Notes: generated by a model not told the origin, from the sequence alone. DNA of 64,000 bases from an uncultured Candidatus Saccharibacteria bacterium (GCA_947253945.1 CAMYAY010000003.1:22664-86663), one strand, 5' to 3'. Shown: positions 14,320 to 42,381, counted from the first letter of the stretch. Numbers and translations are program-made.

Positions 14320-14328
14320 GGGGGGGGG
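14320..14328 (+). repeat. Poly-G tract (G9 as read) in the 5' leader of family member B. Candidate slipped-strand phase-variation switch, currently OFF.
   Basis: ATG at 14293 has a GGAGGA SD, but the reading MNILRLNSCGGG hits TAG straight after the tract. With G8 it reads through into the 14420 ORF frame. Confidence 0.6.
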
Positions 14329-14419
14329 TAGATTTTTAAGCCCTCTACTCCAAATTACTAAAAGTAGGGGTAAAATAGCCGGTGCCGCTAAGTGGAACTT
14401 ATATTATTGTCTAGCATTT

Positions 14420-15910: not shown

Positions 15911-16669
15911 GTGGGTAGCGCAGGAAAGGAGTTTGAGGTGTCAAACGTTGACATTAAACAGCTATTTGAAGCTGGTGCCCACTTCGGTCACAAGACCGCT
16001 CGGTGGAACCCGCGCATGGCGCAATATATTTACGGCAAAAAGGACGGTGTACATATCATCGACCTCGAGAAGACTGTAGCGCAGATTGAGGCTGCTCAAA
16101 AGTTTGTTGAGAGCGTAGCTGAGCGTGGTCGCCAAGTGCTATTTGTCGGCACGAAGCAGCAGGCAAAAGAGGTAACTGCCGAGGCTGCAACTGCTGCCGG
16201 TATGCCTTATGTTACCGAGCGCTGGCTTGGTGGTATGCTAACCAACCAGACCACCGTGGTTGCACAGATTAAGAAGCTAAAGCTATTAGAGAAGCGCATG
16301 GCTAGCGGTGAGCTTGCCAGCCGCTACAACAAGCTCGAAGTGCAGCACTTCCAAGAGGAAATTAACGTCCTCAACACCCGTTATGGCGGCATCAAGGACA
16401 TGCACGGCAAGCCAGGCGTACTCGTGGTACTAGACGCTGTGTCAGACCGCAACGCTATCAACGAAGCTATTAAGCTAAACATCCCAGTGGTAGCCGTTTG
16501 CGACACCAACGCCGACCCGAAGGGCATCGACTATGTCATTCCAGCAAACGACGACGCAATCTCAACCTTGAAGCTTGTGGCGGGCTATCTCGCTGAATCA
16601 GCTAAGGCTGGTAAAGAGAAGTCAGCTAAGGTTGCCGAAGAGCGCAAAGCTGCCAAGGGCGACAAATAA
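15911..16669 (+). CDS. rpsB: Ribosomal protein S2
   Basis: QLFEAGAHFGHKTARWNPRM... is the S2 signature. The likely true start is GTG at about 15937, after GGAAAGGAG. Confidence 0.9.
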   Translation: MGSAGKEFEVSNVDIKQLFEAGAHFGHKTARWNPRMAQYIYGKKDGVHIIDLEKTVAQIEAAQKFVESVAERGRQVLFVGTKQQAKEVTAEAATAAGMPYVTERWLGGMLTNQTTVVAQIKKLKLLEKRMASGELASRYNKLEVQHFQEEINVLNTRYGGIKDMHGKPGVLVVLDAVSDRNAINEAIKLNIPVVAVCDTNADPKGIDYVIPANDDAISTLKLVAGYLAESAKAGKEKSAKVAEERKAAKGDK

Positions 16670-26584: not shown

Positions 26585-26689
26585 AATTTGGCGAAATCAT
26601 TGCGCTTGTGCTATAATGCAGGTATCTAGGAGAATGGTGTAAAAATGGAGGACAAAAACAATATGAATATACTAAGACTAAACAGCTGC

Positions 26690-26699
26690 GGGGGGGGGG
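26690..26699 (+). repeat. Poly-G tract (G10 as read) in the 5' leader of family member E. Candidate phase-variation switch, currently OFF.
   Basis: ATG at 26663 has a GGAGGA SD and reads MNILRLNSCGGGVDF then TAA. With G8 or G11 it reads MNILRLNSCGGGRFLRYFPHIVKREGKIATPAP... straight into the 26854 ORF. Confidence 0.6.
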
Positions 26700-26853
26700 T
26701 AGATTTTTAAGATATTTTCCCCACATTGTCAAGCGTGAGGGTAAAATAGCCACTCCGGCGCCTCTGGCGCCAACAGCCAGCCATAATTTTGCGCCGGCAG
26801 CCGATAGCCAAGCCAATTATAAGAATTTATTAGCGGGCGGTCTCGCCCGCGGG

Positions 26854-28824
26854 GTGGCACTCGGTCTGTTTGTTTTAGCTTTTGCGCCATTAATCTTAGT
26901 TACGCCAGCCCACGCCACCGATGATAACACTGTCAGCATCGCGGTTGACCAGAACGCTACACTAAAGCCAGCTGGCACGCTCTATAAAGCCACCACGAAC
27001 GTTACCGTTAAGACCGGCAAACCCTACGGCTTCAATCTCACCATGCAAGCCGATACGGCTGACCTTGTAAACAGTAAGGACCCAACCCATAAAATCTCCG
27101 CCACTCCAAGCACCACCCCGGTTGCCTTAAACGCTAACCAGTGGGGTTATGCTCTTAATAAGTCTGCCTCTACTTTCAGCGCCGTCCCAGCTGGCACCCA
27201 AGCCACGCCAGCCGTCATTGTTGATACATCAGTTAAAGGCAAGCAAGCTGGTTGTAATTGTAAAGACCATTGCGATACCACTGTTACTTTTGCAGCCAAC
27301 GTCGACCCAGCTAAATTAGCCAGCGGTAGCTATAGCACCACCATTATCTACACGGCTACTGCCAAACCAGCTCCAAAACCACCGGTAGTTGAGCCAACGG
27401 TTTGTAAGTCCGGCGACCCAAAGAACGATTGCCAAGTTGACCTCGACCCAAACATGATCCCAGTCAAATATACTGGCAGTATCTATAACGCAGAGTGGAC
27501 CAGTGTAGCCGATCCAGAAGATAGTTCCAACCAAGGAAATTGGTATGACTACGATAACAAGCAATGGGCTAATGCTATCACTGTAAAGCCATGGGCTCTC
27601 AGTAAATATCAGGGTCAGACCAGGGTAGTAGACCAATCAGATATTCTTGGCTTTTGGGTCTACATACCACGTTATGCTTATGAAGTCATGCGCCGTGATG
27701 CTACAGACAAGCCGGTGCCAGCGCAGAATTTCCTAATTCATTTTGAAAAGAAGACCGACCCGAAGCGCTATCCAGCCGAATCAAAATGTGCTGGCCGTAA
27801 TATGGATTACCGTACCACCTGTAGACTCAATCGCGATTATATCAAGGGCCAGCCAAGCACCCAGGGCACCTGGGCCACCCACCCAGCCTTTACCTTCGGC
27901 GCTAAAGAACTCAATGGCATCTGGTTTGCTAAGTTTGAGACGACGGGTAGTATTGACCATCCAACTATTTTGCCTAATCAATCCCATATAGGGTATGAGC
28001 CTATCGGAACATATTACACGGTAGCTAAATCTCTTGGGGTTAACGACCCACAAAATATTGGTGGCAACAGTATATCCACTACCCAAAATAGCCACAATCT
28101 TGCTAAGTTTAGCTCTCACATGGTAAATAATAGCGACTGGGGTGCAGCTACTTACTTATCTGCTAGTAAGTATGGTTCTGGCTATAATAAGGTTCAAATG
28201 AATACTAATGGACAGGGGCATAGTACTGGCTACAATGATATGTCGTCATATGGTATTACTGGATGTGGTCCGCGTTCTAGTGGCGATGCTAGTAGCTATG
28301 GAGGTAATAGCAGCTATCAGTATAGGCCAAACTATACCGACGAAGTTGGTGGTGTGCTAGGCACCCAAAGTGCTTGCTATTCTGGTGATATACAGCGTGC
28401 TTACAATGGCACCCTTGGCCAACTCGCTAGTACCGCCAACAACCCAACAGGTATTTATGATATGTCTGGTGGGGCTTCGGAATATACTGCATCTAGTTAT
28501 ACTAGTGATCTAAATAATTCTAGTACTATTAATTTCAGACAATCGCCTGCTCGTCCACCGTATGCTAACATATATAATTTCGATACCCTAAATAGATGTA
28601 CTTTTTCTACCTGTGGTGGTCAAGCTCTACACGAAACAAATAGTGATAGCACCGTAGCTCGATGGAATGGTGGCTGGGTAAAATTTGTGGGGCATTCTGC
28701 TCCGTGGTTTGAACGTGGTGGCTACTATGGTGACTCGCATATAGGACTGTTTCGTGTTAGTATTTCGAATGGTGGTCCCATTGGTATGGTCGCGTTCCGC
28801 GTCGCGCTCGCGCCTACGGTGTAA
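26854..28824 (+). CDS. Secreted surface-protein family member E (N-module plus FGE-sulfatase-like C-domain). Phase-OFF; the ON form would start at 26663.
   Basis: The ORF-track start is a GTG without an SD. About 85-90% identical to member G (40276) over the N-module. Motifs ANQWGYALN, CQVDLDPNMIPVKY, YWVYIPRYAYEVMRRD, GTWATHPAFTFGAKELNGIWFAKFETTG, GIYDMSGGASEY, CGGQALHE and FRVALAP are present. Confidence 0.65.
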   Translation: MALGLFVLAFAPLILVTPAHATDDNTVSIAVDQNATLKPAGTLYKATTNVTVKTGKPYGFNLTMQADTADLVNSKDPTHKISATPSTTPVALNANQWGYALNKSASTFSAVPAGTQATPAVIVDTSVKGKQAGCNCKDHCDTTVTFAANVDPAKLASGSYSTTIIYTATAKPAPKPPVVEPTVCKSGDPKNDCQVDLDPNMIPVKYTGSIYNAEWTSVADPEDSSNQGNWYDYDNKQWANAITVKPWALSKYQGQTRVVDQSDILGFWVYIPRYAYEVMRRDATDKPVPAQNFLIHFEKKTDPKRYPAESKCAGRNMDYRTTCRLNRDYIKGQPSTQGTWATHPAFTFGAKELNGIWFAKFETTGSIDHPTILPNQSHIGYEPIGTYYTVAKSLGVNDPQNIGGNSISTTQNSHNLAKFSSHMVNNSDWGAATYLSASKYGSGYNKVQMNTNGQGHSTGYNDMSSYGITGCGPRSSGDASSYGGNSSYQYRPNYTDEVGGVLGTQSACYSGDIQRAYNGTLGQLASTANNPTGIYDMSGGASEYTASSYTSDLNNSSTINFRQSPARPPYANIYNFDTLNRCTFSTCGGQALHETNSDSTVARWNGGWVKFVGHSAPWFERGGYYGDSHIGLFRVSISNGGPIGMVAFRVALAPTV

Positions 28825-28953
28825 CACTTAATGTAACGGTGGTGGCGTACCGAACGTAAAGCCGCCGTTTTGACTGAACTAATACAAGCGGGTTTACTCG
28901 CCATTGTGCCTGTGCTATAATAGGAGTATCTAAGCCATAGGAGGTGGCCAATA

Positions 28954-31080
28954 ATGGTAGAGGTAAGGTCTAAATTGCGGCGGATTTATTTGGTGAGTGG
29001 CATGGCATTGATTGTGCTCGCCACCCTTCTGGTGTTGCATCCGGCGCCGGTGCAGGCGCGGCTGGCCAGCCAGAGCGCGACGCCGACTAATGACGGCATA
29101 GAAGTTACGTCTGTTGACGAACTGAAGCTGCAGCGGGGTGAGCACCGCTTTTACAAGGCTACCAATCACATTTTTGTCAAGACAGGCTGGAAGTACGGCT
29201 TCAGTGTGACCATGTTGGCGTTGACGCCGGATTTATTGCACAATCCGAACCCTATTTCTGACTGTGGTAGCGTTGTGATCGCAGCCCCTAAGAGCTATGA
29301 GCCGGTGGATTTGCAGCCGGGGCAGTGGGGCTTTAGCCTCGACCAAAATGCTACCAAGTTCAGGCATATTCCGAGTATGTGGCAGGCTCGGCCGCACGAC
29401 GACCCGCTACTGATAGCCGAAACGTCTCCAAACAAGACCGGCAAGTGTGCCAGCGCCCATGAGTGTGATGTGCCGGTGACCTTTGCGGCTAATTTAGACT
29501 CCAATGACATCGCTGCTGGCAAATACGAGACTAATGTTTATTACACGGTGACCGCTAAGCCGCGCCCGCCGCATGTGATTGAGGAGCCGAACATGAGCAC
29601 TAATTTTTGCCAGTCCGGCAACGCAGCGAACAGCTGTAAGGTTGATATCGACGCCAACATGATTCCAGTGCGCTACGACACCGAATATGCCAAGTGGGTG
29701 AGTGTAGCCAAGACCGAAGACGCCGCGCATCAGGGTAGTTGGTATGATTATAATAAGAAGCAGTGGGCGAACGCCGTGACGGTGAAGAAATCGGCATTAA
29801 GTAAGTACCAAGGCCAAGCTAAACCTGTCGACCCAGCTGATATTCTCGGTTACTGGGTGTATGTGCCGCGCTATGCTTATGAGGTGATGCGGCGTGACTT
29901 TAGCAACCACCTTCCAGTGAAGCCGCAGAATTTTGCCATTCACTTTGAAAAAGCGACTGACCCAAAGCGCACTCCGGCGCCATGCGAGCGTAGTTCGTAC
30001 TTCATGCCGGATTACCGGAAGGATTGTAAACTCGACCGCAGCTACATTGCTGGCAAGCCGAGCAAGAACGGCACTTGGGCGACTCATCCAGCGTTTAGTT
30101 TTGGCAAGAAGGAGCTGAACGGCATTTGGTTTGCGAAGTTTGAGACCACTGGTACGAAGACTCAGCCAACGGTGCTGCCGAACCAGCGTCGTATGACTGG
30201 CGCTGACCTTGGTGGCGACGCTGCGGGCTTGTTCTATACGCTGGCTAAGACTGTGGGCACTGTTGACCTTGGTAACGTTGGCGGTACGCGCATCAAGGAC
30301 GCGCCAAGTAACGCGCACGACCTCGCCAAGTTTAGCTCACGCATGATAAACAATAAGGACTGGGGCGCCTTAGCTTACCTCAGCGCCAGCGAGTTCGGCA
30401 CGGGCTACAACGGCTTACAGTCAAACAACCAGACCGACGACCAAATGGACGCCGACCAGAATTTCAGCAAGGGTGTAACGGGCTGTGGCGCCGGCACCGG
30501 CGAAGACTACTCCGACACTGGCAAGTTGGGCACGGAGCAGGCTTGTAACGCAAACCACCCAGAGTACGCCTATAATGGCACCGTCGGACAGCACGCCAGC
30601 ACCACTGGTAACGTGACAGGCGTGTACGACATGGCGGGCTATGGTGGCTACGTGGCGGCGAAGTATGTTGTTGATCCAAATACGCTAGTGCCGAGCTCCA
30701 TACCAGAGTTTGCACGACCGAAGTATACGTGGTATCACAAGAGCGACCCGACTGGCATTGGCGCGCCGCTCAACTCGCCGTACCTCAATGCTTATAACTT
30801 CTCGTCGTTTGACAAGTGTACTTATGAGCTTTGTGGTGGGCAGGCTAGCTATGAAGTTCACAACATCTACGTCCCGTCCGGTCCAAATCAGTGGCTGGGT
30901 CAAAAGTATGACGATTACAAGATGGAGGTTGAGGATACTTGGGTTTACCGTGGCGGCAGTAGCGACCTTGAAGGCGACATTGCGACAGGTGACCGCGGTA
31001 TTTACACCTTCCATCTTGCGAACGGTGGTTCAACTGGCCAAGACGGCTTACATATTGTCCTCGGCGCATTTAAGCAGTAA
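28954..31080 (+). CDS. Secreted surface-protein family member F (divergent N-module plus FGE-like C-domain). No poly-G.
   Basis: GGAGGTGG SD. Signal ...LHPAPVQA. Motifs QWGFSL, CKVDIDANMIPVRY, YWVYVPRYAYEVMRRD, GTWATHPAFSFGKKELNGIWFAKFETTG, GVYDMAGYGGY and CGGQASYE are present. Confidence 0.7.
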   Translation: MVEVRSKLRRIYLVSGMALIVLATLLVLHPAPVQARLASQSATPTNDGIEVTSVDELKLQRGEHRFYKATNHIFVKTGWKYGFSVTMLALTPDLLHNPNPISDCGSVVIAAPKSYEPVDLQPGQWGFSLDQNATKFRHIPSMWQARPHDDPLLIAETSPNKTGKCASAHECDVPVTFAANLDSNDIAAGKYETNVYYTVTAKPRPPHVIEEPNMSTNFCQSGNAANSCKVDIDANMIPVRYDTEYAKWVSVAKTEDAAHQGSWYDYNKKQWANAVTVKKSALSKYQGQAKPVDPADILGYWVYVPRYAYEVMRRDFSNHLPVKPQNFAIHFEKATDPKRTPAPCERSSYFMPDYRKDCKLDRSYIAGKPSKNGTWATHPAFSFGKKELNGIWFAKFETTGTKTQPTVLPNQRRMTGADLGGDAAGLFYTLAKTVGTVDLGNVGGTRIKDAPSNAHDLAKFSSRMINNKDWGALAYLSASEFGTGYNGLQSNNQTDDQMDADQNFSKGVTGCGAGTGEDYSDTGKLGTEQACNANHPEYAYNGTVGQHASTTGNVTGVYDMAGYGGYVAAKYVVDPNTLVPSSIPEFARPKYTWYHKSDPTGIGAPLNSPYLNAYNFSSFDKCTYELCGGQASYEVHNIYVPSGPNQWLGQKYDDYKMEVEDTWVYRGGSSDLEGDIATGDRGIYTFHLANGGSTGQDGLHIVLGAFKQ

Positions 31081-31150
31081 GCCCAAGCCTCGGCTGCGCC
31101 CGCAACAAAATGTTTGCGTTATAGGATAAAGTTTGTTATAATGTAGCTAT

Positions 31151-31375
31151 ATGATTACAGTGAAGAGAAAAGATGCCCGTGAGGCTAATGAGAATTTGCT
31201 ACGCCGCTTCAACCGCCGCGTGTTGCAATCAGGGGTGATTGCAAACGCCAAGGCTGCCCAGCGTTTTAGCAAGCCAATTAGCAAGCGCGAGCGCCGCGAG
31301 GGTGCTATCATCCGCGAACAGCGCAAGGCAGAAAAGACTTTGCAGATTCGTCTTGGTCTTGCCAAGGCTCGCTAG
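31151..31375 (+). CDS. rpsU: Ribosomal protein S21
   Basis: MITVKRKDAREANENLLRRFNRRVLQSGVIANAKAAQRFSKPISKRERRE fits the S21 pattern. A terminator follows at about 31400-31440. Confidence 0.7.
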   Translation: MITVKRKDAREANENLLRRFNRRVLQSGVIANAKAAQRFSKPISKRERREGAIIREQRKAEKTLQIRLGLAKAR

Positions 31376-31504
31376 TCCAGCTTGTCGGCAATTAGTCTAA
31401 GAACTTAGCAAAAGCACCACCTAATAGAGGTGGCGCTTTATTTTGCTATTGACTATTTCGCGCGATTATGCTATTTATATAGATAGTATATAGCTTAGAG
31501 AAAG

Positions 31505-33388
31505 GTGAAGATGGAGCGATTTAATCATGTCACTCCGGCTGCGCAGCCGGAGTCGGACGATACTCAAGAATTCCCAATTCAGTACAAGGGTTGGGCCAAC
31601 CGTGGTGATAATACAGACCACCACCAAGAGAAGAGAGCTTCTTTAGATGACACTATTGTTACCCCAGTAGTATCGGCGCCGTTGTCGGACGATACGATTG
31701 CCATGCTGCCAGTTAATGCCGCACCGCGTCCCGTAAAGTTAAGTTGGCCAAGTGAACCTACGCCAACCGAAGCGACGAGTGAAGCCAAGGCTGCTAATCC
31801 AGATAGTTTATTTAGTAAGCACAACAAAATTATTGCTGGCGTAGCAGGCGCGGCGATATTGTTGGGTGTTGTAGTGGCGGGTGTTATGTCGCGCAAAAAT
31901 GAGCGCGCAGATAAGCCAAGCGCCTCTGTTAGCGCACCGGCCAAGCCGCAGAAGCCGGCTAAGCCTGATGTTAAGTCGGAGGCAAAGCAACAGCCTAGCC
32001 CTGAAGCAGTTGACGCCGGCGGCCCAGCCGATTACTCCGCCTTGCCGCTCAACCAGATTTACGACCAAAATTGGTACAAGGTAGGCAGTGAGTTGGTTGG
32101 GGATCCGGGGCATACTGCTGCTGCTGGTAAGCAAAATGATGTTGGAATGGACGCAAGTGCTCCAGTCAATGACCACGATGGCTTTTATAATTTCTACAAC
32201 GCTCGCTATCAAATCGATTCAGCCGCCGAGAAGGGTCAGATTGGCAAGGTGATCCGCAGCGAAATTGCTAATAGTGTAGCCGACGATACCGCCATGGCTA
32301 CGTATTACGACATAAAGAGTGACAGAAGTGGTAATAGTGATAACTCTAAGGAACCTAAATTAACTGATGCGCAGCGTAATTATTTTGAGCGGCTGAAGTC
32401 TGTTGTTGGCGGCGACTTTAAGACGTACACGCGCAATACTATGTATGCTGACCGTGTTACTTATCTTTTGCACAGTGGCCATTCTTTCAATACCACATAT
32501 AACGAACGTCACCCAGGTTCTGTGGGATATGCTGATATGTATCAAAGCAATGCAGAAGAGCTTAACGTGCCATACGTAGACGAAAACGGCAACAACATCG
32601 GACTTGACAAGTCTGCCCACTACGATAGCCTAATGAGCGTGATGCGGTGGATGCTATACGACCAAGGGTTTTACAATGTCGCCGTCAGCCCGGCTGGTGT
32701 TTGGGGTACTTGTCGCCTAGATAACCGTGGTTATATGGAAGCCGTGCAAATTGTTTTGCCATCGCAGGACAATCCGGACAAGTTCGATGTGTTTGTTGGT
32801 GTGTTGGACGACATCTATTACAATCGAGTATTGACAAGTGACGTAAATTATACTGTGGCGGACTATAGCGGTACGAACGATTATGCACTTTATGCCTCAG
32901 TGCTCCGCCAAAGCAACAAGAGTACCGGAATTTTGCCATTCCGTGCTATTTTACATGATGTTGACCGGCCGTTGCGTGCCAAGGATAATGAGCTGTCACG
33001 TGTGATGCGTAAGTTTGGTGTTGATGACAGAAAAATGGCTTCAATCGTCGGTAGTAGCTTTGCCACGTTGGTAGGTAGCAATATGTTCGTTGACAATGAA
33101 ATTAAGGGTGTGGGCTATGGTGGATTTATCCATCGTGGCGATGTGGAAGCATTGCCGCATTACGAACAATATGTGGGAAGTGGAAGTTTGCCGGTTTATC
33201 TTAACGGTCTTAATGCTCACAGAGATGAAAACGGTGACGACGTGGAACGCTATCGGGCATTTATGTTAAAGGCGGCGCCGACGAGCCGTCAGTGGTATGG
33301 TGAGCCTAATAAAGGTATTGATTACAATAAGGGGATGCTTAATTACGACGAGTTTGTAAAGCTTGATCGTGCAGCGTTTGGTAATTAA
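31505..33388 (+). CDS. Membrane-anchored extracytoplasmic protein of unknown function
   Basis: Cytoplasmic N-terminus, one TM segment (IIAGVAGAAILLGVVVAGVM), and a large C-terminal domain of about 480 aa. A terminator follows at 33392-33420. Confidence 0.5.
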   Translation: MKMERFNHVTPAAQPESDDTQEFPIQYKGWANRGDNTDHHQEKRASLDDTIVTPVVSAPLSDDTIAMLPVNAAPRPVKLSWPSEPTPTEATSEAKAANPDSLFSKHNKIIAGVAGAAILLGVVVAGVMSRKNERADKPSASVSAPAKPQKPAKPDVKSEAKQQPSPEAVDAGGPADYSALPLNQIYDQNWYKVGSELVGDPGHTAAAGKQNDVGMDASAPVNDHDGFYNFYNARYQIDSAAEKGQIGKVIRSEIANSVADDTAMATYYDIKSDRSGNSDNSKEPKLTDAQRNYFERLKSVVGGDFKTYTRNTMYADRVTYLLHSGHSFNTTYNERHPGSVGYADMYQSNAEELNVPYVDENGNNIGLDKSAHYDSLMSVMRWMLYDQGFYNVAVSPAGVWGTCRLDNRGYMEAVQIVLPSQDNPDKFDVFVGVLDDIYYNRVLTSDVNYTVADYSGTNDYALYASVLRQSNKSTGILPFRAILHDVDRPLRAKDNELSRVMRKFGVDDRKMASIVGSSFATLVGSNMFVDNEIKGVGYGGFIHRGDVEALPHYEQYVGSGSLPVYLNGLNAHRDENGDDVERYRAFMLKAAPTSRQWYGEPNKGIDYNKGMLNYDEFVKLDRAAFGN

Positions 33389-33461
33389 TTTATGAGTCAC
33401 CGCCACGAGGCGGTGATTTTACTGCCCGCCCGTGGCTGGGCTGGTGTGCTACAATATTACT

Positions 33462-33911
33462 ATGAGTTTACAAGAACAAATTAAGGCGGATTTTAAGGCA
33501 GCAATGCTGGCGCATGATGAAGTGAAAAAGCTCACCATCAGTGGTTTGAAGTCGGCCATGCAGTATAAAAAGGTGGCGTTGGGGAACCAAGCTGACCTCA
33601 CGGAAGACCAGATGCTTGACGTCGTGGCGGCGCAAGTGAAGCAGCGCGACGACTCGATTGCTATTTATCAGCAGGCGGGTGACACGGAGCGCGCCGCGGC
33701 CGAGCAGGCGCAGCGCGACATTTTGGCGGCGTATTTGCCGAAGCCACTTTCGGCGGACGAGCTGAGCGCCGTGGCGCATGAGGTGATTACGGCGAACAAC
33801 TTCACGATGAAGGATATGGGCAAGGCCATTGCCGCCGTCAAGGCGAAGGTTGGCCACGCCGCCACCGGTGGCGACATTGCTGCGGCGGTTAAGCGGAGCT
33901 TCAACCAATGA
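33462..33911 (+). CDS. GatB/YqeY-domain protein
   Basis: MSLQEQIKADFKAAMLAHDEVKKLTISGLKSA...LPKPLSADELSAVAHEV matches the YqeY family. Confidence 0.7.
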   Translation: MSLQEQIKADFKAAMLAHDEVKKLTISGLKSAMQYKKVALGNQADLTEDQMLDVVAAQVKQRDDSIAIYQQAGDTERAAAEQAQRDILAAYLPKPLSADELSAVAHEVITANNFTMKDMGKAIAAVKAKVGHAATGGDIAAAVKRSFNQ

Positions 33912-34489
33912 TTATGTTTGTGGGCCCAGCTGGGGCAGGCAAGTCGGTGCAAGGTCAGCTTTTGGCGGTGTGCCATCAGCTGACTTGGTTGAGTGCTGGC
34001 AAGCTGTTACGTGAGACCAACGACCCGCAGGTGTATGAGGTGATGGCGCGCGGTGAGCTCGTTTCGCCCGCACTTGTTAATCGGGTAATTTTCCATCATT
34101 TGGACGACCAGCCAGAGCTGGACAATATCATTATCGACGGCTACCCACGCAGCCTTGACCAGGCGCAGGCGCTTTCGGAGTACAGCCAGCAGCGTATGGG
34201 GCGTGAGTGTATCGACTTCGTGGTGGTGTTTGACGTCACGGCCGACGAAATTTTCCAGCGGCTGAGCTTGCGTGGGCGACTTGACGACACGCGTGAAGTA
34301 ATTGAACATCGTTTGGAGAGCTACAAAGCCGACACTCTACCTCTGGTGAACTACTACACCGAGCGTGGCGCCAAGGTGGTGCACGTCAACGGTATCGGTT
34401 CGCGCGGCGAAGTGCTCGACCGCATCGAAAGCGCATACAACGACTACCGTGCAACGCGGCCAGCGGAGGCGGCGGATGCGAATCATTAA
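33908..34489 (+). CDS. adk: Adenylate-kinase-like nucleoside monophosphate kinase
   Basis: P-loop FVGPAGAGKSVQGQLLA, the NMP-binding/LID arrangement, and DGYPRSLDQA. Confidence 0.6.
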   Translation: MIMFVGPAGAGKSVQGQLLAVCHQLTWLSAGKLLRETNDPQVYEVMARGELVSPALVNRVIFHHLDDQPELDNIIIDGYPRSLDQAQALSEYSQQRMGRECIDFVVVFDVTADEIFQRLSLRGRLDDTREVIEHRLESYKADTLPLVNYYTERGAKVVHVNGIGSRGEVLDRIESAYNDYRATRPAEAADANH

Positions 34490-35261
34490 GGCAGCTAACT
34501 TCACACCCGTTGAAATCGACCACATGCGCGAGGCGGGGCAAATTTTGGCTTCGCTCTTCCGTGACGTACGGCAAGAAGTGGTGGCGGGTGCGACACCAAA
34601 GGACATTGACGCTTGGTTTGCGCGTGAAATAAAGGCGCGCGGCGCTCACGCGACTTACCTTGACCCAGATGTCAACTTCCCTGGGGTAATTTGTATCAGC
34701 GTGAACGACGTGGTGGTGCATGGCGTGCCGAACGACGTGCCGTTTGAGGCAGGTGACGTCATCAGCTTTGATTTGGTAGTAGACGTTGATGGTATGAAGG
34801 CAGACAGCGCTTTTACCATGTTGACCGACGACGCGGCGCCAACTGGGGCAAAGAAGATGTTGATTCACACCACGGAGCGCAGTTTGTATGCCGGCATTGA
34901 TGCCGTGAAGCGTGCCCGTGGCGATGTTTGCGTGGGCAACATTGGCGCGGCAGTGCAGGCCGTACTAGAGAAGGAGAAGCTGGGCGTGGTGCGCGACTTG
35001 GTCGGGCATGGCATCGGGCGTGAAATGCACGAGGCGCCGGACATCCCGAACTACGGCAAGCGTGGCATTGGCCCGATTGTGCCGACCGGCAACGCCATCG
35101 CCATTGAGCCGATGGCAACTTTGGGTACTTGGCGTGTGGCGTTCGACCCTGATGGTTGGACGATTCGCACGCGCGACGGCAGCTTGGCGGCGCACTTTGA
35201 GCACACCTTGCTATTGCACGACGACGGCCCCGAGATTATCACCAAGTTGAAAGAAAATTAG
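34476..35261 (+). CDS. map: Methionine aminopeptidase, type I
   Basis: MRIIKAANFTPVEIDHMREAGQILA..., metal ligands in VVHGVPND...FDLVVDVDGM...HGIGREMHE...IEPM, and a terminator at 35268-35292. Start set at 34476, inside the longer ORF-track call. Confidence 0.85.
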   Translation: MRIIKAANFTPVEIDHMREAGQILASLFRDVRQEVVAGATPKDIDAWFAREIKARGAHATYLDPDVNFPGVICISVNDVVVHGVPNDVPFEAGDVISFDLVVDVDGMKADSAFTMLTDDAAPTGAKKMLIHTTERSLYAGIDAVKRARGDVCVGNIGAAVQAVLEKEKLGVVRDLVGHGIGREMHEAPDIPNYGKRGIGPIVPTGNAIAIEPMATLGTWRVAFDPDGWTIRTRDGSLAAHFEHTLLLHDDGPEIITKLKEN

Positions 35262-35359
35262 TTTTAGCCACCCCGCGCGGGTGGCTTTTTGTCTATTTTT
35301 GTGACAAAATTTTGTGTCACCGTCTAATTTAAAAGCCACCTCTAGGAGGTGGCTGGGGG

Positions 35360-36064
35360 TTAGGCTTTCGCCCAATCGACTAAAGTGCTATCCACTATGC
35401 AACGCGCTGGGTCTTGTTCGTCTTGGCGGACATAAATAATGTAGCCATGACTCCAACCGGGGTCGAGCATAGAAGACATGATAAAGTGGGTGCAATAGTG
35501 GTACTGGCCGGCGACGCGTTCGCGAGTGCGGTAATAGTAGCACTCCGGCATGATGTTAGCCGCCGCGGGAACGATTTCATTGACTTGGTCAATGAAGGCG
35601 CTGTTGGGCGTAAAAGCCGTGGCGCCACTCAGCACCGTGGACCTGGCGATGTCGGCGCGGTAGTTGTCGTGCAAGTGGCGGGCGATGCCTTGCCAGATGA
35701 CCTTGATGCCGCCTTCGCCAATTAAGTTGCAGTCGATGGCGCCCACCATTGAGCCGGACTTGACAACACTAATTAAATCTTGTCTGGTTCGTTCCGCCAT
35801 GTCAAGCAAATGCCCTGGGCAATACCAACCGCTGTCGCGGCGCTTGTGTTTGCCTTTGGTGGTACATTGCCAGGTGCGGTGCTCGCCAAGCCTCAATGGT
35901 CGAGTTGCCGCTTCTTCAGCAAGTTCAGCTTTCGCTTGCTCGTTAAGCTGATTGGCTTGGCGGAGGCGCGGGCTAATCCAGCTTGTTGCTACTGGGGTAG
36001 CCGCTTCATAGTTATGCGTCTGGTCAATTTTATCAGCAACCAACATTGCAGTTTGTGTATCCAT
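35360..36064 (-). CDS. Hypothetical protein
   Basis: 234-aa ORF with GGAG upstream. No recognisable domain. Confidence 0.4.
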   Translation of the reverse strand: MDTQTAMLVADKIDQTHNYEAATPVATSWISPRLRQANQLNEQAKAELAEEAATRPLRLGEHRTWQCTTKGKHKRRDSGWYCPGHLLDMAERTRQDLISVVKSGSMVGAIDCNLIGEGGIKVIWQGIARHLHDNYRADIARSTVLSGATAFTPNSAFIDQVNEIVPAAANIMPECYYYRTRERVAGQYHYCTHFIMSSMLDPGWSHGYIIYVRQDEQDPARCIVDSTLVDWAKA

Positions 36065-36227
36065 TAATTTTACTCCTTAAGGTACGACTCCAGAGGGGTG
36101 CTAGAGAATATTATTTAATTCTATAACATTTTGCGTATATTGTCAATGGCGGGAGGTGACGTCGCGGACGCACTAACAGATGTGAGTGGGGCAAAGAAAA
36201 GGCCACCCCCGAAGGGGTGGCAGGCTA

Positions 36228-36821
36228 TTAGTAGTTGATATGAGACTTACGATAATCATAAACGAGGCGACCGAACTCAACGTTCATGTGGTCAAAGTAA
36301 GCCACTAGGGTAAACTCTGTGTCGTAGTGCGTGGTGTAATTGCCGACATGCATGCCGAGCAGAAAGGCGTTGTACTCCTGTCCACGGGCATTTTTGCCGA
36401 CAATCGGCGCGACGAAACAGCTGTTCGTGTCGTGTTTAACTTGGTCCTCGGCGCGTGGATGCGCAACAAAAGTGGAGCCCGGCAGGCTATGCTTTAGGGT
36501 TTGCGCCAGCACGCGGTAAAATTCTCCCGTTGGCTGGAAGAACTTGGCGTGTTGGGTGGCGCAATCGAGCCAGAGGTTGTTAAACGCGGCGCGTAGGTCG
36601 GGGTATTCTTGGTTAGCAATGTATTGCTGAGCCCAATCCATACAATCGACCACTTGAGGCGCGCAAGCGTCAGGGGCGCGAGCTAGCCGCGCGGCGCGCG
36701 GGTCGGCTTCGGCAATTAACAGACAGTACTTCAGTAAGGGCGGCGTAAGCGCCTCCACTCCCATCAGTGTAGCCTGTTCAACTACCTTGCCGAGTGTCTC
36801 GGTGTAGCTAAACTTTATCAT
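36228..36821 (-). CDS. Hypothetical protein, last gene of a three-gene minus-strand operon
   Basis: Its start overlaps the stop of the upstream gene at 36821. No recognisable domain. Confidence 0.4.
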   Translation of the reverse strand: MIKFSYTETLGKVVEQATLMGVEALTPPLLKYCLLIAEADPRAARLARAPDACAPQVVDCMDWAQQYIANQEYPDLRAAFNNLWLDCATQHAKFFQPTGEFYRVLAQTLKHSLPGSTFVAHPRAEDQVKHDTNSCFVAPIVGKNARGQEYNAFLLGMHVGNYTTHYDTEFTLVAYFDHMNVEFGRLVYDYRKSHINY

Positions 36822-37636
36822 TAGACGCCCTCCGTGTAGTGAATGTGAACAGCTTTCACCCTTGTCGCAATGGAGTTCGTCTTTTCGCTCTCGTCCGCGT
36901 CTTCGCCCGAGTCCTCGTCCTCATCTGCTTCGTCGTAGTCGTAATACGGCTCGCCGTCCCAGTCTTCGTCGTCGAGATAGTCGCTATAATCTTCGCGTGC
37001 GTCGGAATAGGCGCAGATAAACAAGCGACTAGCTTCAGGCTTAAAGAGATGCTGGCGCATCAAAACAGTCGTTTGCTCGATGTCGTCGAGGTGCGGACTG
37101 CTTCCTTGGAAGCCAAAAACCAACTCGGTCGGTTGGTCATCGGTTTCACTGAGTGGGCGGGGCACACGCGACATGCCGGCAAGTTCGTCAGCGGTAAAAC
37201 TCCGCGGGCGGCGGCGCAGCAGGGCGACAAAGCACGAGTAGTTTGCCAAATCGTAGAGGGTGTGATCCGGATAGTACAAGTCGCGCAGCTCGCAATCGAG
37301 CTGGTCGATAAATGTGCTGTCAGGAACAAAGCCCTCAAAGGCGCACGGGTGCTCAAGGTCAAGGTCGCCGAGTACGTTGTACGGCAGGATGGCGGTCTCG
37401 CAAGCGGCATCAAGCCATTCGCGCGGGCTGCTCACCACGGTATTTTCGTTGCGCTCCCAAGCCTCAATGTGAAGCTCGCTGGCAGTCTTAGACGTAATTG
37501 CGCCTTCGCGGCCGGCGGTCAAAATGGCGCGGCAGTAGTCGCTGGTAACGCCCAAAACGGCTTTCTCACCTTGCACGTGTTCGACGCGGATATTGACGCC
37601 GCTAGCGTAGAAGCTACCGAGTGCAAATTTTTCCAT
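36821..37636 (-). CDS. Hypothetical protein with a strongly acidic C-terminal tail
   Basis: Start set at MEKFALGS after AAAGGAG. Ends DYSDYLDDEDWDGEPYYDYDEADEDEDSGEDADESEK. Confidence 0.4.
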   Translation of the reverse strand: MEKFALGSFYASGVNIRVEHVQGEKAVLGVTSDYCRAILTAGREGAITSKTASELHIEAWERNENTVVSSPREWLDAACETAILPYNVLGDLDLEHPCAFEGFVPDSTFIDQLDCELRDLYYPDHTLYDLANYSCFVALLRRRPRSFTADELAGMSRVPRPLSETDDQPTELVFGFQGSSPHLDDIEQTTVLMRQHLFKPEASRLFICAYSDAREDYSDYLDDEDWDGEPYYDYDEADEDEDSGEDADESEKTNSIATRVKAVHIHYTEGV

Positions 37637-37811
37637 AATATCTCCTTTAATAGCGGTAATGTACATCAAAATTAGTGGAGGCCACCTCATTTGAATGGTA
37701 AATATCATACCATAATTCGGCCAAAATGTGTAGGAGCGGGGTACTAAAAAAGCCGCCCCTTGGGGGCGGCATGCTTGCTGTCGCTTTAAGCGTAATGAGG
37801 CCGGGCGACCG

Positions 37812-38450
37812 TTATGCAAGCTTTATCTTGAGGTAATACCGTAGAGCGTTATGCTCAGGATGACGAACGTCATTACGGTACACAAGTCCAAAACGACTGT
37901 AGCTGTCGCACAGCTCGCCTGAGAAGGCGCGGATTAGTAAGAGCGAAGCCGGCTGAGCCGAATCATCGTCCGATTCAAGTGGTACGTAGAGTGCCTTGAC
38001 CTTGTCTAGCTTGCGCGAAATTTGGGCGCAATAGGTTTCCGCATCCGTATTGTCATAGTTAAACGGTGAACCCGCCTTTTCTGCGCTGCTAGCAACATCG
38101 TGGGCAATCCTATCGTAGAATTCACAACTTGGTTTAAACTCCACATACTCACGCCGTTTGGCGGGGTCAATATCATCCAACGCACTCAGGTAGTGCTTGT
38201 ATTCCTCATCCCTTGAGATGACAAACAACGAGTGTAGCACTTCGCCGATACTGCCATAACCACCGTCGTGGCCGAGCGTAATTGAGCCGGGCACGGCGTA
38301 CTTGGATCTGCCAGTCCCACGTGCTGCTTTCAGCACATCTTGACAGGCATAGGCGGTATTGGCGGCAAGGAGTTCGTTTGCTTTTGACGTAGCGTTATAG
38401 TCTTCGATGTAGCAACTTGCTGTTTTGCTTGAATACCAATTTGCAATCAT
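37812..38450 (-). CDS. Hypothetical protein, first gene of the three-gene operon
   Basis: 212 aa. Its stop overlaps the start region of the next gene. A bidirectional terminator lies at about 37745-37775. Confidence 0.4.
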   Translation of the reverse strand: MIANWYSSKTASCYIEDYNATSKANELLAANTAYACQDVLKAARGTGRSKYAVPGSITLGHDGGYGSIGEVLHSLFVISRDEEYKHYLSALDDIDPAKRREYVEFKPSCEFYDRIAHDVASSAEKAGSPFNYDNTDAETYCAQISRKLDKVKALYVPLESDDDSAQPASLLLIRAFSGELCDSYSRFGLVYRNDVRHPEHNALRYYLKIKLA

Positions 38451-38566
38451 ATCAACTTACCTCTAGATATCGTAATGTACAACAAGACTTTGTGTCTTGC
38501 ACCGTGATATATTACCACATAACAGGTGGCGCGTCAATACTGAAAGCGTGGTATAATGTTACCATG

Positions 38567-40066
38567 GCAACACTAGCAGACTATCGCAATGAGCGACTCA
38601 AGAAACTCGAAACCCTGAAGGCGCAGGGGTTCGACCCGTATCCGGCCAAAGTCGAGCGCACGGTTGGCGCGGGTGAAGTTGCGCCGCAGTTTGACCAGCT
38701 GGAAGGCAGCACGCAGACCGTGGTGGGGCGCATCGTGTCGCTTCGCAAGTTTGGCAAGCTGGCGTTTATCGTGGTGCGCGATTTTACAGGGCAGCTGCAA
38801 CTGTTCTTGCGTGCCGGCGCGGTGGCTGAGACCGACGGTAAGACCAATCAGCTCGGTTTGAGCGACCTCAATTTGCTAGACACCGGCGACTTTGTGCAGG
38901 CGACCGGCGAAGTCATCAAGACCAAGACGGGCGAGATTTCGCTTGGTGTGACATCGCTTAAGCTAGTGGTGAAGACTTTGCGCCCAATGCCTGACCGGCA
39001 GGGCTTTACTGATAAAGAGCAGCGCTTGCGCCGCCGTTACATTGACATGAACGTCAACCCAGAGGTGCGGGAGCGCTTTGTGCGCCGTTCGAAGTTCTGG
39101 CAGGCCACGCGCGACTACTTAAATCAGCACGGCTTTATTGAAATTAACATTCCGGTGCTTGAGCACACCACGGGCGGCGCTGACGCCAACGCCTTTAAGA
39201 CCCACATGGACTCGCTTGACCAAGATTTGTACCTCCGCATTAGCCACGAGCTGCCGCTGAAGCGTTTGCTCGGTGCGGGCTACGAGCGTGTGTACGATAT
39301 CGGGCCGCGCTTCCGCAACGAGGGCATCGACGATGAGCATCTGCCGGAGCACATTGCTATGGAGTGGTATCACGCTTACTGGGACTGGCGTGACGGCATG
39401 AAGTTTATGGAGGGCATGTATAAGTACGTGGCCGAGCAGACTTTTGGCACGCTGCAGTTTAAGATTGGCAAGTTTGACGTTGACCTCGGCAAAGAGTGGG
39501 AGGTTTGGGACTACGCTGATGTGATAAAGCAGCACTACGGCATTGACGTCTACAATGTTACTCTCGAGAAGGTAGTGGAGCTGTTGAAGGCGAATAAACT
39601 TGAGGTCGGCAAGAGTGAAAACCTCTCGCGTGGCATCGATAAGCTGTGGAAGAATATCCGCAAGGACGTGGCGGGGCCGGTCTGGCTGGTCAACACGCCA
39701 AAGTTCATTTCGCCACTCGCGAAGGCAAATCCGGACGGCGTCAGCACACAGCGCTTTCAGCCGGTGATTGCCGGCTCGGAGCTAGGCAATGGCTACTCAG
39801 AATTAAACAACCCGATTGACCAGTTGAGCCGCTTTGAGGAGCAGCAGAAGTTGCGCGAGGCGGGCGACGACGAGGCTATGATGCTGGATGTCGACTTTGT
39901 TGAGATGCTAGAGTACGGCATGCCGCCGGCCTGTGGTTGGGGCTACAGCGAGCGCGTGTTCTGGATGCTAGAAGGCGTGACGGCGCGCGAGGGCGTGCCA
40001 TTCCCGACCATGCGTTATGAGGTCGACCCAGTAACCCGCAAGATTTACCCTGAGCTGAAGCTGTAA
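38567..40066 (+). CDS. lysS: Lysyl-tRNA synthetase, class II
   Basis: MATLADYRNERLKKLETLKAQGFDPYP..., an OB-fold anticodon-binding domain, class II motifs (FRNEGID...), a TGGTATAAT promoter at about 38557, and a terminator at 40085-40115. Confidence 0.9.
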   Translation, partial: ATLADYRNERLKKLETLKAQGFDPYPAKVERTVGAGEVAPQFDQLEGSTQTVVGRIVSLRKFGKLAFIVVRDFTGQLQLFLRAGAVAETDGKTNQLGLSDLNLLDTGDFVQATGEVIKTKTGEISLGVTSLKLVVKTLRPMPDRQGFTDKEQRLRRRYIDMNVNPEVRERFVRRSKFWQATRDYLNQHGFIEINIPVLEHTTGGADANAFKTHMDSLDQDLYLRISHELPLKRLLGAGYERVYDIGPRFRNEGIDDEHLPEHIAMEWYHAYWDWRDGMKFMEGMYKYVAEQTFGTLQFKIGKFDVDLGKEWEVWDYADVIKQHYGIDVYNVTLEKVVELLKANKLEVGKSENLSRGIDKLWKNIRKDVAGPVWLVNTPKFISPLAKANPDGVSTQRFQPVIAGSELGNGYSELNNPIDQLSRFEEQQKLREAGDDEAMMLDVDFVEMLEYGMPPACGWGYSERVFWMLEGVTAREGVPFPTMRYEVDPVTRKIYPELKL

Positions 40067-40275
40067 GGAAGGTGAGGCTATAACTAAATCCCCGCGTTGG
40101 CGGGGATTTTTGGTGACAGAAAGTAGCTTTGATGGCTTAGCTTTTGCTCTAGCAGCGGGGCAGCTTGTTTAAAGTTTGGCGTTTTATCCCGCTTGTGGTA
40201 TAATGCAGGTATCTAGCCGGTGGTGGCAGAGATAAACCTAAACAGGACAATAACCAAAAATGGAGGACAAACAAC

Positions 40276-42381
40276 ATGAGTAAATTACGGCAAACAGCTG
40301 TGGGGGGGGGTAAACTTTTAAGATATTTTTCCCACATTGTCAAGTGTGAGGACAAAATAGTTACTCCGGCGCCAACAGCCAACCGCAATAATTTATTGGC
40401 GAGCAGTCTTGCCCGCAGGGTGGCGTTTAGTGCTATCGCTCTGGCCGTTGCGCCATTTATCCTCACTGCACCAGTCTATGCTGCTGACGATAACACCGTC
40501 AGCATTGCCGTTGACCAGAACGCCGCACTAAAGCCTACTGGCAATCTCTACAAAGCCACCACCAATGTCACTGTCAAGACCGGCAAGCCCTACGGCTTCA
40601 ATTTAACCATGCAAGCCGACACGGCTGACCTTATCAACAGCAAGGACCAAACCCACAAAATCTCTACCACCCCAAGCTCCACGCCGGTTGCTCTTAATGC
40701 CAACCAGTGGGGCTATTCCTTAAACTCTAAGGCCACCACTTTCAGCAGTGTACCAAATCGCACCCAACCTGCGGCCATGATTGCCGACGTCACCAAAGCC
40801 AAGCCAGCAGGTTGTACCAACCCAGCAAGTTGCACTAAGTCCGTTACTTTTGCGGCTAACGTCGACCCGGCGAAATTAGCCAGCGGTAGTTACAGCACCA
40901 CTATCACTTATACCGCAACCGCGAAGCCAGCCCCAAAACCACCTGTAGTTGACCCAACGGTTTGTAAGTCTGGCGACCCGCAGAACGATTGCCAAGTTGA
41001 CCTTGATGCCAACATGATTCCAGTTAAGTACACCGGCAGCACCACCAATGCTCAGTGGACCAGCCTTGCCAATCCCGAAGATAGTTCCAACCAAGGTAAT
41101 TGGTATAACTATAATAACAAGCAGTGGGCTAACGCCTTAACTGTAAAAGACCCAAGCAAGTACAAGGGTAAGAGCATGGTGGTTGACCAAGCCGATATCC
41201 TCGGCTTCTGGGTGTACATTCCACGCTACGCTTATGAGGTGATGCGGCGTGATGGTACGGATAAACCAGTTCCAGCCCAAAACTTCCTAATTCAATTTGA
41301 GAAGACGACAACGCCAAAGCGTGTGCCGGCGGCTTGCCCGGAGCAGGGTAAAGACTACCGCACTCAGTGTGGCTTAGACCGTAGTTACATTAAAGGCCAA
41401 CCAAGCAACCAAGGTACTTGGGCGACCCACCCCGCCTTCACTTTCGGTGCTAAAGAGCTCAACGGCATCTGGTTTGGTAAGTTTGAGACAACAGGCACTA
41501 CAGATCAACCAACCGTCTTACCAAACGAAGCCCATATTTCTGGTGAATATAGTGGTATGAATAACGAAGTCGGTAACTTCTACTCACTCGCCAAGACTCT
41601 CGGCGTTGAAGACCTGAATAACGTTGGTGGTAGCGGCTTTACCACCACTCAAAACAACCATCACTTTGCCAAATTTAGTTCTCACATGGTCAACAATGAC
41701 GATTGGGGTGCCGTCACTTACTTAAGTGCCAGTAAGTACGGCGCTGGCTATAATGGTGTCCAAATCAATGCTAATGGCACAGGACATAATAATATTAGTT
41801 CTGGTACTACTGGTTGCGGTCCATATGCTAATGGAGATACTGGCTCATATTCTGCTAATACAACAGAATCGTATATAACTTACAAAAATATTAGTATCGG
41901 TTCACTTGGTTCTCAACAAGCCTGTAGCAGCGACGGCACTCGTGCCTACAACGGCACTCTCGGCCAACTCGCCAGCACCACCAACAACCCAACCGGCATC
42001 TACGATATGTATGGTGGTGGCTATGAATATGTCGCTGCTAGAAGATATACTGGTGACGACTCTAGTACTGACTACTTCAGCCAACCAGCTAATCCGCCAT
42101 ACGTCAACACATATAACTTCAGCGACCTGGATAGCTGCACTTTCGCTACTTGTGGCGGCCAAGCCCTTCATGAAACCAATCTATCCAATTCTGCAAATGG
42201 TTCTAAACAATGGAATAACAACATCTCATACTTCGCGAGTTATATTAAACCGTGGTTTGAACGGGGTGGCGACTACAGCTCTGGCTCGTTTGCTGGTTTG
42301 TTCTCTGCCGTCTCCGACGATGGCTACAGCTACGACGGCAGTGCCTTTCGCGTCGCGCTCGCGCCAGCGCCGTATGATTAG
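40276..42381 (+). CDS. Secreted surface-protein family member G (N-module plus FGE-like C-domain). Poly-G leader in frame (ON).
   Basis: GGAGGA SD. MSKLRQTAVGGGKLLRYFSHIVKCEDKIVTPAP...VAFSAIALAVAPFILTAPVYA. The G9 tract at 40302-40310 encodes VGGG. Near-identical to member E. Confidence 0.7.
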   Translation: MSKLRQTAVGGGKLLRYFSHIVKCEDKIVTPAPTANRNNLLASSLARRVAFSAIALAVAPFILTAPVYAADDNTVSIAVDQNAALKPTGNLYKATTNVTVKTGKPYGFNLTMQADTADLINSKDQTHKISTTPSSTPVALNANQWGYSLNSKATTFSSVPNRTQPAAMIADVTKAKPAGCTNPASCTKSVTFAANVDPAKLASGSYSTTITYTATAKPAPKPPVVDPTVCKSGDPQNDCQVDLDANMIPVKYTGSTTNAQWTSLANPEDSSNQGNWYNYNNKQWANALTVKDPSKYKGKSMVVDQADILGFWVYIPRYAYEVMRRDGTDKPVPAQNFLIQFEKTTTPKRVPAACPEQGKDYRTQCGLDRSYIKGQPSNQGTWATHPAFTFGAKELNGIWFGKFETTGTTDQPTVLPNEAHISGEYSGMNNEVGNFYSLAKTLGVEDLNNVGGSGFTTTQNNHHFAKFSSHMVNNDDWGAVTYLSASKYGAGYNGVQINANGTGHNNISSGTTGCGPYANGDTGSYSANTTESYITYKNISIGSLGSQQACSSDGTRAYNGTLGQLASTTNNPTGIYDMYGGGYEYVAARRYTGDDSSTDYFSQPANPPYVNTYNFSDLDSCTFATCGGQALHETNLSNSANGSKQWNNNISYFASYIKPWFERGGDYSSGSFAGLFSAVSDDGYSYDGSAFRVALAPAPYD
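40302..40310 (+). repeat. Poly-G tract (G9) inside the leader codons of member G, ON configuration
   Basis: GCT GTG GGG GGG GGT AAA is in frame. Confidence 0.6.

Follow-up and report, generated by a model that had tools for sequence, protein, structure and literature searches.

The DNA analysed here is a stretch of 64,000 nucleotides (the window) from an uncultured Candidatus Saccharibacteria bacterium, which corresponds to about positions 40272-104271 of scaffold_16 (113,651 bp, ENA assembly ERZ28569506). It contains several members of a gene family that are designated here by letters. We analysed two of them, E and G, and compared them with their relatives in other genomes. A preliminary description had presented E and G as near-identical, collinear paralogs, one switched ON and the other OFF, between which segmental gene conversion could diversify the expressed copy. 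Both peptides that it quoted were found, in the open reading frames (ORFs) 26854-28824 (E) and 40276-42381 (G), and they differ in 5 of 55 residues. E and G are collinear from end to end and lie on the same strand, 13.4 kb apart.

The homology between E and G extends 5' of the listed GTG start of E, back to a promoter, a ribosome-binding site (RBS), an ATG and a poly-G tract (Table 1). The common cassette consists of TTGGCG-N17/18-TATAAT with a TG extension, a GGAGGA RBS, the ATG, about 26 nt and the poly-G. The two promoters align, including an exact 18-nt block, TATAATGCAGGTATCTAG. The ON and OFF states were correctly assigned before: the G9 tract of G is in frame and gives a protein of 701 amino acid residues, whereas the G10 tract of E leads to a stop after 15 codons. 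The frame of E is open from 26617 to 28821, comprises about 708 intact codons and would be regained with G8 or G11; in homologues of other genomes the same cassette is in frame at these two lengths. Four poly-G tracts were found in the conserved context, those of C and G in frame (both G9) and those of E (G10) and B (G9) out of frame. B and C carry a close variant of the E/G cassette, with TACAAT as the -10 element of B. Among the homologues the poly-G length varies from 7 to 11, and in-frame and out-of-frame states both occur, which supports a putative slipped-strand phase variation of the family members. Since E has its own promoter, RBS, ATG, poly-G and an intact ORF, it is a complete, switchable expression locus and not a silent cassette or donor.

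The stretch between the ATG and the poly-G exists in two subtypes, one common to B and E (about 58 of 60 nt identical; 14293-14340 and 26663-26711) and the other to C and G (21499-21545 and 40276-40322). On the 3' side of the poly-G, E resembles G and not B, and its 5' end is a B-type segment fused to a G-type leader. This change of type across the homopolymer suggests that a recombination junction lies at or near the poly-G tract of E.

For the comparison, 32 E/G-type genes from six genomes were codon-aligned. These were the window genome (W), 'Ca. Saccharibacteria genomosp. TM7-H1' (H1) and the genomes labelled XXV, UOM, PVQ and IMA; five of the six are metagenome-assembled genomes (MAGs), and TM7-H1 is the sole PacBio assembly. 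Syntenic loci are present in the uncultured Candidatus Saccharibacteria MAGs and in the complete 723-kb chromosome of TM7-H1 (CP026537). The flanking housekeeping proteins are 94-99% identical to those of the relatives, and the proportion of differing synonymous sites (pS) in their genes is 0.12-0.24; the relatives are therefore sister species with the same gene order. TM7-H1 is the vaginal BVAB-TM7 taxon, whose genome was obtained from PacBio reads and which has been tied to preterm birth; for the uncultured vaginal Saccharibacteria of this type, a link with bacterial vaginosis as well as with preterm birth has been described (PMC6750801). TM7-H1 has about 10 E/G-type copies. On the scaffold the window is closely preceded by the 3' end of a third E/G-type paralog of the window genome (L029 1-357, scaffold_16 33377-33733), whose last 115 residues are 58-63% identical to those of E and G. 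Behind this paralog come genes of a RelB/ParE toxin-antitoxin, a family member that is D-like, and a protein of 817 residues with a sortase domain.

E and G turned out to be far less alike than the term near-identical had implied. They are 66.9% identical over 665 residues (blastp, E=0) and 70.4% identical over 2030 nt (blastn), and their synonymous sites are saturated. In the codon alignment the identity was 70% for nucleotides, 70% for amino acids and 52% for third positions. The NG86 estimates for the gene body were pS=0.675 (synonymous divergence dS about 1.7), a nonsynonymous divergence dN of 0.21 and dN/dS=0.12, with pS 0.54 in the N-terminal module (N-module) and 0.73 in the C-domain. 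This pS compares with the 0.12-0.24 of the flanking housekeeping genes between the same genomes. The longest exact match between E and G is 22 nt, and the family median is 27-29 nt (496 gene pairs). The best 120-nt windows, with 83-87% nucleotide identity, lie at about 26926-27100 in the N-module and about 27277-27440 at the junction of N-module and C-domain. In these windows genes of other genomes match E or G at 0.88-0.97, compared with 0.83-0.86 for E and G themselves, and the quoted N-module stretch is nearly invariant across 57 aligned family proteins from many samples. The well-matched stretch is thus real, but it is not specific for the pair; the N-module similarity reflects conservation throughout the subfamily and no special bond between E and G. 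Many foreign proteins are nearer to G than E is, with up to 82% identity. As far as their sequences tell, E and G are old paralogs, only about 70% alike.

The E/G-type genes are mosaics. Along E and G the nearest neighbour switches every 100-200 nt among genes of the five related genomes, at local identities of 0.85-0.97. In G the neighbours were, in order, the XXV G-locus gene, PVQ_L7a (0.97), the PVQ G-locus gene, the H1 G-locus gene (0.91), again the XXV G-locus gene, the H1 E-locus gene, H1_P0031 (0.88, next best 0.62), PVQ_L23 and IMA_L6a. In the G-locus gene of TM7-H1, G-like segments (0.92-0.97 nucleotide identity) alternate with E-like segments (0.85-0.91), with z=-4.5 and p<=1e-4 in a runs test on a triplet picked after inspection of the data, and p=0.013 with third positions only. 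Chimeric E-like/G-like alleles, which the preliminary description had proposed to look for, are therefore present in related genomes. Discrete patch alleles were also found at different loci. The E-locus genes of this genome and XXV and the G-locus genes of UOM, H1 and IMA all have the patch type VDTSVKGKQAGCNCKDHC; the type ADVTKAKPAGCTNPASC is carried by the G-locus genes of this genome, XXV and PVQ and by the E-locus genes of UOM and PVQ. Between the loci the patches are 86-90% identical in nucleotides, and pS between E and the UOM G-locus gene was 0.26-0.29, which is the interspecies background. This patch typing is the most direct evidence of mosaicism. In a GENECONV-like scan, which took the longest identity run over 1146 polymorphic sites with 500 column permutations, 10 of the 465 pairs were globally significant. 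Five of these join two G-locus genes and look like remnant orthologous tracts; an example of a cross-locus pair is H1_P0055 with the UOM G-locus gene (134 nt exact). The mosaic tracts and the cross-locus patches in the related genomes argue that segmental exchange involving the E and G loci has taken place, apparently slowly and roughly on the timescale of speciation.

Exchange between E and G themselves was not detected. The GENECONV check that the preliminary description had suggested gave a longest run of 16 polymorphic sites for this pair (p=0.26) and no significant common tract. Among 30-codon windows none in the gene body had a pS of 0.30 or below, and only the 5' leader reached that value. 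Both results argue against a recent exchange between the two genes. In the 32-gene set, gene pairs from one genome had a median pS of 0.687. For pairs from different genomes the median was 0.674 when both genes came from the same locus and 0.690 when an E-locus gene was compared with a G-locus gene. There was hence no signal of orthology by locus, and concerted evolution, in which co-resident paralogs would be homogenised, was rejected because pS within genomes was no lower than between genomes. Of the proposed segmental gene conversion, the chimeric alleles and cross-locus patches of related genomes bear out the historical part. An ongoing conversion with E as silent donor finds no counterpart in the data. 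Independent evolution of the two loci without mosaic tracts, which the same description named as the contrary outcome, was not what the relatives showed, since mosaic tracts were found.

The 3' ends of the E/G-type genes follow a different pattern. They encode W(F)xRGG..Y..GS.AGLF, a segment rich in Y, D, G, S and N, and AFRVALAP, and resemble the variable region (VR) of a diversity-generating retroelement (DGR). Of the E/G-type genes whose 3' end is complete, all but the long variant H1_P0055 terminate in this way. Long family variants of 854-889 residues (P0055, L003 9956-12622; P0005, P0014, P0016, P0020, P0032 and P0044) have an extra C-terminal extension beyond the VR-like segment. In TM7-H1 the member P0070 is followed by an Avd-like gene, a reverse transcriptase (RT) gene with the motif IGNYTSQ and a 137-nt repeat that is inverted relative to P0070. 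The core differences between this template repeat (TR) and the 3' end of P0070 all go from A in the TR to N in the VR. A 1-nt deletion in the P0070 VR (L004 11940-12049) relative to the TR shifts the ...AFRVALAP end into an unrelated tail.

Cassettes of this kind were found at three loci of the relatives (Table 1), with RT motifs IGNYTSQ/LGSCTSQ. The TR-VR pairs have 137 nt at 85% identity in L004, 117 nt at 90.6% in L018 and 120 nt at 88% in L030, and their core mismatches are adenine-only. The RTs of L004 and L018 are distinct (47% identical), while L030, from a third strain, repeats the TM7-H1 type and has a TR 98.3% identical to that of TM7-H1. In both L004 and L018 the orientation of the TR is opposite to that of the RT gene and of the VR. 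The host of the cassette differs by species: it is the G locus in one of them and another member, between FtsK and S20, in TM7-H1. A database search showed that RTs of the H1 type are widespread, with 93-97% conservation; no RT homologue was located on a contig of 113,651 bp, the length of scaffold_16, and the one candidate looked up for the RT of the window genome belonged to another sample. Each genome has about 10 VR-bearing paralogs, of which apparently only the RT-adjacent one fits the TR cleanly.

The G locus of the window is without the DGR insert that follows the G-locus gene of the second species, and only 78 bp lie between the stop codon of G and the downstream sequence common with that locus. 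No TR was detected in the window with blastn using the 3' ends of A, E, F, G and H, and no RT with tblastn using the TM7-H1 RT. In the comparison with the TM7-H1 TR, 19 of 28 A sites were changed in E and 20 of 30 in G, whereas the changed non-A sites numbered 30 of 89 in E and 22 of 90 in G. The odds ratio (OR) was 4.2 for E and 6.2 for G (p=5e-5 for G). The 3' segments of E and G look like descendants of DGR-diversified regions that are probably no current targets of the TM7-H1 TR, and the DGR action on the two genes would be visible as a relic signature only. The strongest divergence between E and G, at the C-terminus, would be better explained by a DGR-type variable region than by gene conversion.

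Table 1. Positions of the features of E, G and related loci. Window coordinates, except for the three retroelement cassettes, which are given in the coordinates of the locus named.
Feature	Position	Strand	Remarks
Family member B, poly-G	14320..14328	+	G9; ATG-to-poly-G stretch nearly the same as that of E
Family member C, poly-G	21525..21533	+	G9; ATG-to-poly-G stretch of the G type
E, promoter-like site	26588..26617	+	TTGGCG-N18-TATAAT with TG extension, followed by GGAGGA RBS; promoter scan
E, start and poly-G	26663..26699	+	ATG at 26663, G10 at 26690-26699; out of frame (OFF)
E, frame after poly-G	26701..28824	+	Leader and signal peptide, N-module (about 26917-27399), C-domain (about 27400-28701), stop; intact
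E, patch P1	27136..27255	+	…VDTSVKGKQAGCNCKDHC…; same allele type at the G locus of three other genomes
E, DGR-type variable-region-like segment	28702..28814	+	PWFERGG...AFRVALAP
G, promoter-like site	40176..40204	+	TTGGCG-N17-TATAAT with TG extension
G, start and poly-G	40276..40310	+	ATG at 40276, G9 at 40302-40310; in frame (ON)
G, gene (701 aa)	40276..42381	+	Leader and signal peptide, N-module (about 40483-40962), C-domain (about 40963-42249)
G, tract identical to another species' G-locus gene	40627..40716	+	95-nt exact match from 40624; pS=0
G, DGR-type variable-region-like segment	42250..42365	+	PWFERGGDYSSGSFAGLFSAVSDDGYSYDGSAFRVALAP
DGR cassette (Avd-like gene, RT, TR)	L004 11862-14203 (CP026537.1)		TM7-H1, between FtsK and S20
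DGR cassette (Avd-like gene, RT, TR)	L018 12027-14086 (CAMIMA010000002.1)		Directly 3' of the G-locus gene
DGR cassette (Avd-like gene, RT, TR)	L030 1817-4144		Same arrangement as in TM7-H1

The nature of the proteins was addressed by structure prediction and profile searches. An AlphaFold model of full-length G, computed with 57 homologues, was confident only for residues about 70-220, the N-module, with a predicted local distance difference test (pLDDT) score of about 90. The modelled N-module is an Ig-like beta-sandwich, and its best Foldseek matches were the donor-strand-exchange pilins CfaB, CS17 and FimG; against chaperone-usher pilins E was about 5e-4 and the TM-score about 0.45-0.56. 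A profile search of the PDB gave no meaningful match. In Pfam, only a weak signal of the FGE-sulfatase/CLec type was obtained, with FGE-sulfatase matches in 20 of 57 members, the best of which had E=1.6e-4 and did not reach the gathering score. Only member B matched NCBIfam CPR_Pam_pilin_C, weakly with 16.6 bits against a cut-off of 55. An Opa match was found among the family proteins neither in Pfam nor in NCBIfam. We propose that the family proteins are secreted and have two domains, a pilin-like N-module and a divergent lectin/FGE-like C-domain. A pilus-associated adhesin role would be a reasonable interpretation of the modelled fold. Proteins 30-32% identical to residues 275-695 of G, the C-domain, are encoded at three loci of a MAG labelled 'uncultured Bacilli' (CAKPNP01 contigs; L025, L026 and L027), so that either the domain occurs outside the Candidate Phyla Radiation (CPR) or the contigs are mis-binned.

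Probably, then, E and G are old paralogs of a large, hypervariable family in a Saccharibacteria genome close to the vaginal TM7-H1. The family would combine independent poly-G loci with a slow reassortment of patches, and its C-terminus is targeted by a DGR in relatives. Each copy would be a complete contingency locus, with its own extended -10 promoter, RBS and ATG and a leader-coding poly-G that sets the frame; in this assembly G is ON with G9 and E is OFF with G10. Short-tract homologous recombination would reassort the variable patches between conserved blocks, among loci, strains and species, and in the history of the clade this would have included exchange between the E locus and the G locus. 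In addition, adenine-directed DGR mutagenesis acts on the C-terminal variable region of the RT-adjacent members in the relatives.

Several points weigh against this reading. The triplets for the runs tests (z -4.5 to -8.2 overall) were picked after the data had been inspected. The third-position pairwise homoplasy index (PHI) test was not significant, and the linkage disequilibrium (LD) at third positions had an r2 of about 0.035 at every distance; with an incompatibility of about 0.88 and this r2, both tests were already saturated and are uninformative. Since the third-position tests are weaker, part of the mosaic signal could reflect saturation and clustered selected sites. E and G differ from the TM7-H1 TR at 24-34% of the non-A sites, and the search for an RT and a TR was negative both in the window and on scaffold positions 33377-111038, where no RVT_1 domain occurs; a walk of 10 kb along the scaffold to either side also met no RT. 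The C-domain had a pLDDT below 50 in the AlphaFold model. With two E/G-type paralogs in the window and at least one further copy upstream, the view of donors within this genome is limited. Finally, all comparison genomes but TM7-H1 are short-read MAGs, in which an assembly artefact could yield some chimeras.

It is quite possible, though we hold this account only tentatively, that the mosaics arose from imported DNA of other strains or species by transformation and homologous or ectopic recombination, with the co-resident E-G pair irrelevant as a substrate. The longest identical tracts (162, 134, 99 and 95 nt) all join genes of different genomes, whereas the maximum within a genome was 71 nt, and of the 11 pairs that exceed the 95% permutation threshold, 10 combine genes of two genomes. 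Likewise, G and the PVQ G-locus gene have a pS of 0 over 90 nt and are there closer than the genome background, at a tract that looks like an orthologous remnant inside the mosaic. On the other hand, the placement of patches at different loci demands ectopic integration whatever the source of the donor, one pair within a genome (H1_P0031 and H1_L15c) was significant, and within this genome a B-type segment and a G-type leader meet in the 5' part of E. The sets of paralogs in the MAGs are moreover incomplete.

An active and fast conversion of the pilE/pilS or vlsE type within the lineage, with E as the silent OFF donor and G as the expressed acceptor, we regard as improbable. It would fit one copy being ON and one OFF, the collinear same-strand arrangement at 13.4 kb, the chimeric E-like/G-like alleles in a related genome and the presence of a RecA gene in the related TM7-H1 genome. 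Recombination, however, needs a minimal length of exact homology, and because of their 70% nucleotide identity and exact matches of at most 22 nt E and G would be poor RecA substrates. The lack of a common tract (p=0.26) and of low-pS windows in the gene body argues against it as well. Pairs within a genome were no more alike than others, and only 1 of 86 had a significant tract. With its promoter, RBS, ATG, phase switch and an ORF under purifying selection, E is also unlike a promoterless, truncated cassette.

It is very unlikely that there was no recombination at all and that the patchy pattern reflects conserved structural core segments between surface loops which, since an ancient duplication, diversifying selection has driven apart in place. 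The low overall dN/dS (0.12), the restriction of the variable patches to a few segments and the non-significant third-position PHI and LD results would be in line with it. Genes at the same locus have, however, a silent divergence 3-6 times that of the flanks (pS about 0.67 compared with 0.12-0.24), which is too fast for point mutation in place, so that such mutation is no explanation. The discrete patch alleles at different loci of different genomes (86-90% nucleotide identity), the significant identical tracts of the global scan and the switching of the nearest neighbour, in places with 0.88 against at most 0.62 for the next best gene, speak against it as well. Equally hard to credit is that the chimeras are short-read assembly artefacts by collapse or switching of strains and paralogs in the conserved blocks, as the five MAGs among six genomes and the interleaving of conserved with variable blocks might suggest, since the PacBio chromosome of TM7-H1 has the same mosaic relations (PMC6750801), the exact repeats within a genome (at most 22 nt for E and G, at most 71 nt in any genome) are shorter than typical final assembly k-mers, and the pattern recurs across independent assemblies.

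Variation was also seen at other loci of the region. The F locus (window 28954-31080) is 91% conserved at the amino acid level in one relative (L012 2303-4426), whereas in TM7-H1 a short C-type family member stands at this position (L024 12324-12818); the content of the loci is therefore also turned over by replacement of whole genes. The G+C content is about 0.40-0.41 in the 2-kb windows 14001-16000 and 62001-64000, the first of which covers member B, and 0.49-0.58 elsewhere.

Among the known systems the Neisseria opa family would be the closest working analogue. As in the family described here, it has several full-length copies that are scattered over the genome, each with its own promoter, and a simple repeat in the coding region of the leader peptide sets the frame of each copy ON or OFF independently. 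In both, hypervariable segments lie between conserved blocks, and their reassortment among loci and strains gives mosaic alleles. The likeness is an analogy only, as there is no kinship in sequence or fold. The Opa repeat consists of CTCTT pentamers and not of a poly-G homopolymer. Opa proteins are 8-stranded outer-membrane barrels, whereas the family members are secreted two-domain proteins of about 700 residues of a monoderm-like CPR bacterium, and here a DGR layer is added on the C-terminus in relatives.

Silent-cassette systems such as pilE/pilS of N. gonorrhoeae, vlsE of Borrelia, msp2 of Anaplasma and tprK of Treponema use promoterless, truncated donors with near-identical flanking blocks and a single expression site, and they switch frequently within a clone. 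They have in common with the E/G-type genes that segmental transfer among paralogs creates chimeric alleles of surface proteins. They differ in that every copy here is a full expression locus, with E and G at 70% identity and without a recent tract. Membership in this class was rejected: E is neither promoterless nor truncated, and no long near-identical blocks and no recently copied tract were found between it and G.

DGRs are abundant in CPR bacteria in general. As in the variable proteins of DGRs, such as Mtd of the Bordetella phage and TvpA of Treponema, the VR of the family has ...AFRVAL at its end and many residues of the kind that mutagenised AAY (AAC/AAT) codons would give, and in the relatives a VR and a TR that differs at adenines stand beside an Avd-like gene and an RT with a DGR motif. 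Unlike in those systems, the window yielded no RT or TR, E and G carry many non-A differences from the TM7-H1 TR, and in the L004 and L018 cassettes of the relatives the TR runs opposite to the RT gene and the VR.

The combination of a pilin domain with a binding domain recalls tip adhesins such as those of chaperone-usher systems (FimH, PapG and CfaE), yet the order of the domains is reversed compared with FimH and PapG. The NCBIfam match of member B to the Pam pilins of CPR bacteria is far under the cut-off. Pam pili, with PamA/PamB, are a recently described CPR-specific system (bioRxiv 10.64898/2026.03.03.709456). The literature searched contained no account of phase variation, gene conversion or a DGR for this Saccharibacteria family. 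A more speculative and rather doubtful extension is that the E/G-type proteins are tip or decorating adhesins of Pam pili with a host-binding lectin domain. This domain would be varied by three stacked mechanisms: poly-G switching of each copy, the shuffling of short patches between strains as well as between about 10 loci, and a DGR cassette whose place in the family shifts from species to species. If true, this would amount to a combinatorial system for host range or immune evasion in human-associated Saccharibacteria.

The diversity of the family would thus be drawn from a population-level pool of mosaic alleles together with DGR mutagenesis, and not from a fast conversion system of two copies. 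At silent sites the family is 6-10 times more diverged than the genes that flank it. Because of this divergence, the switch of each copy, the exchange of patches between loci and the targeting by a retroelement in relatives, it is a strong candidate for determining with which host or immune environment epibionts of the TM7-H1 type can cope.

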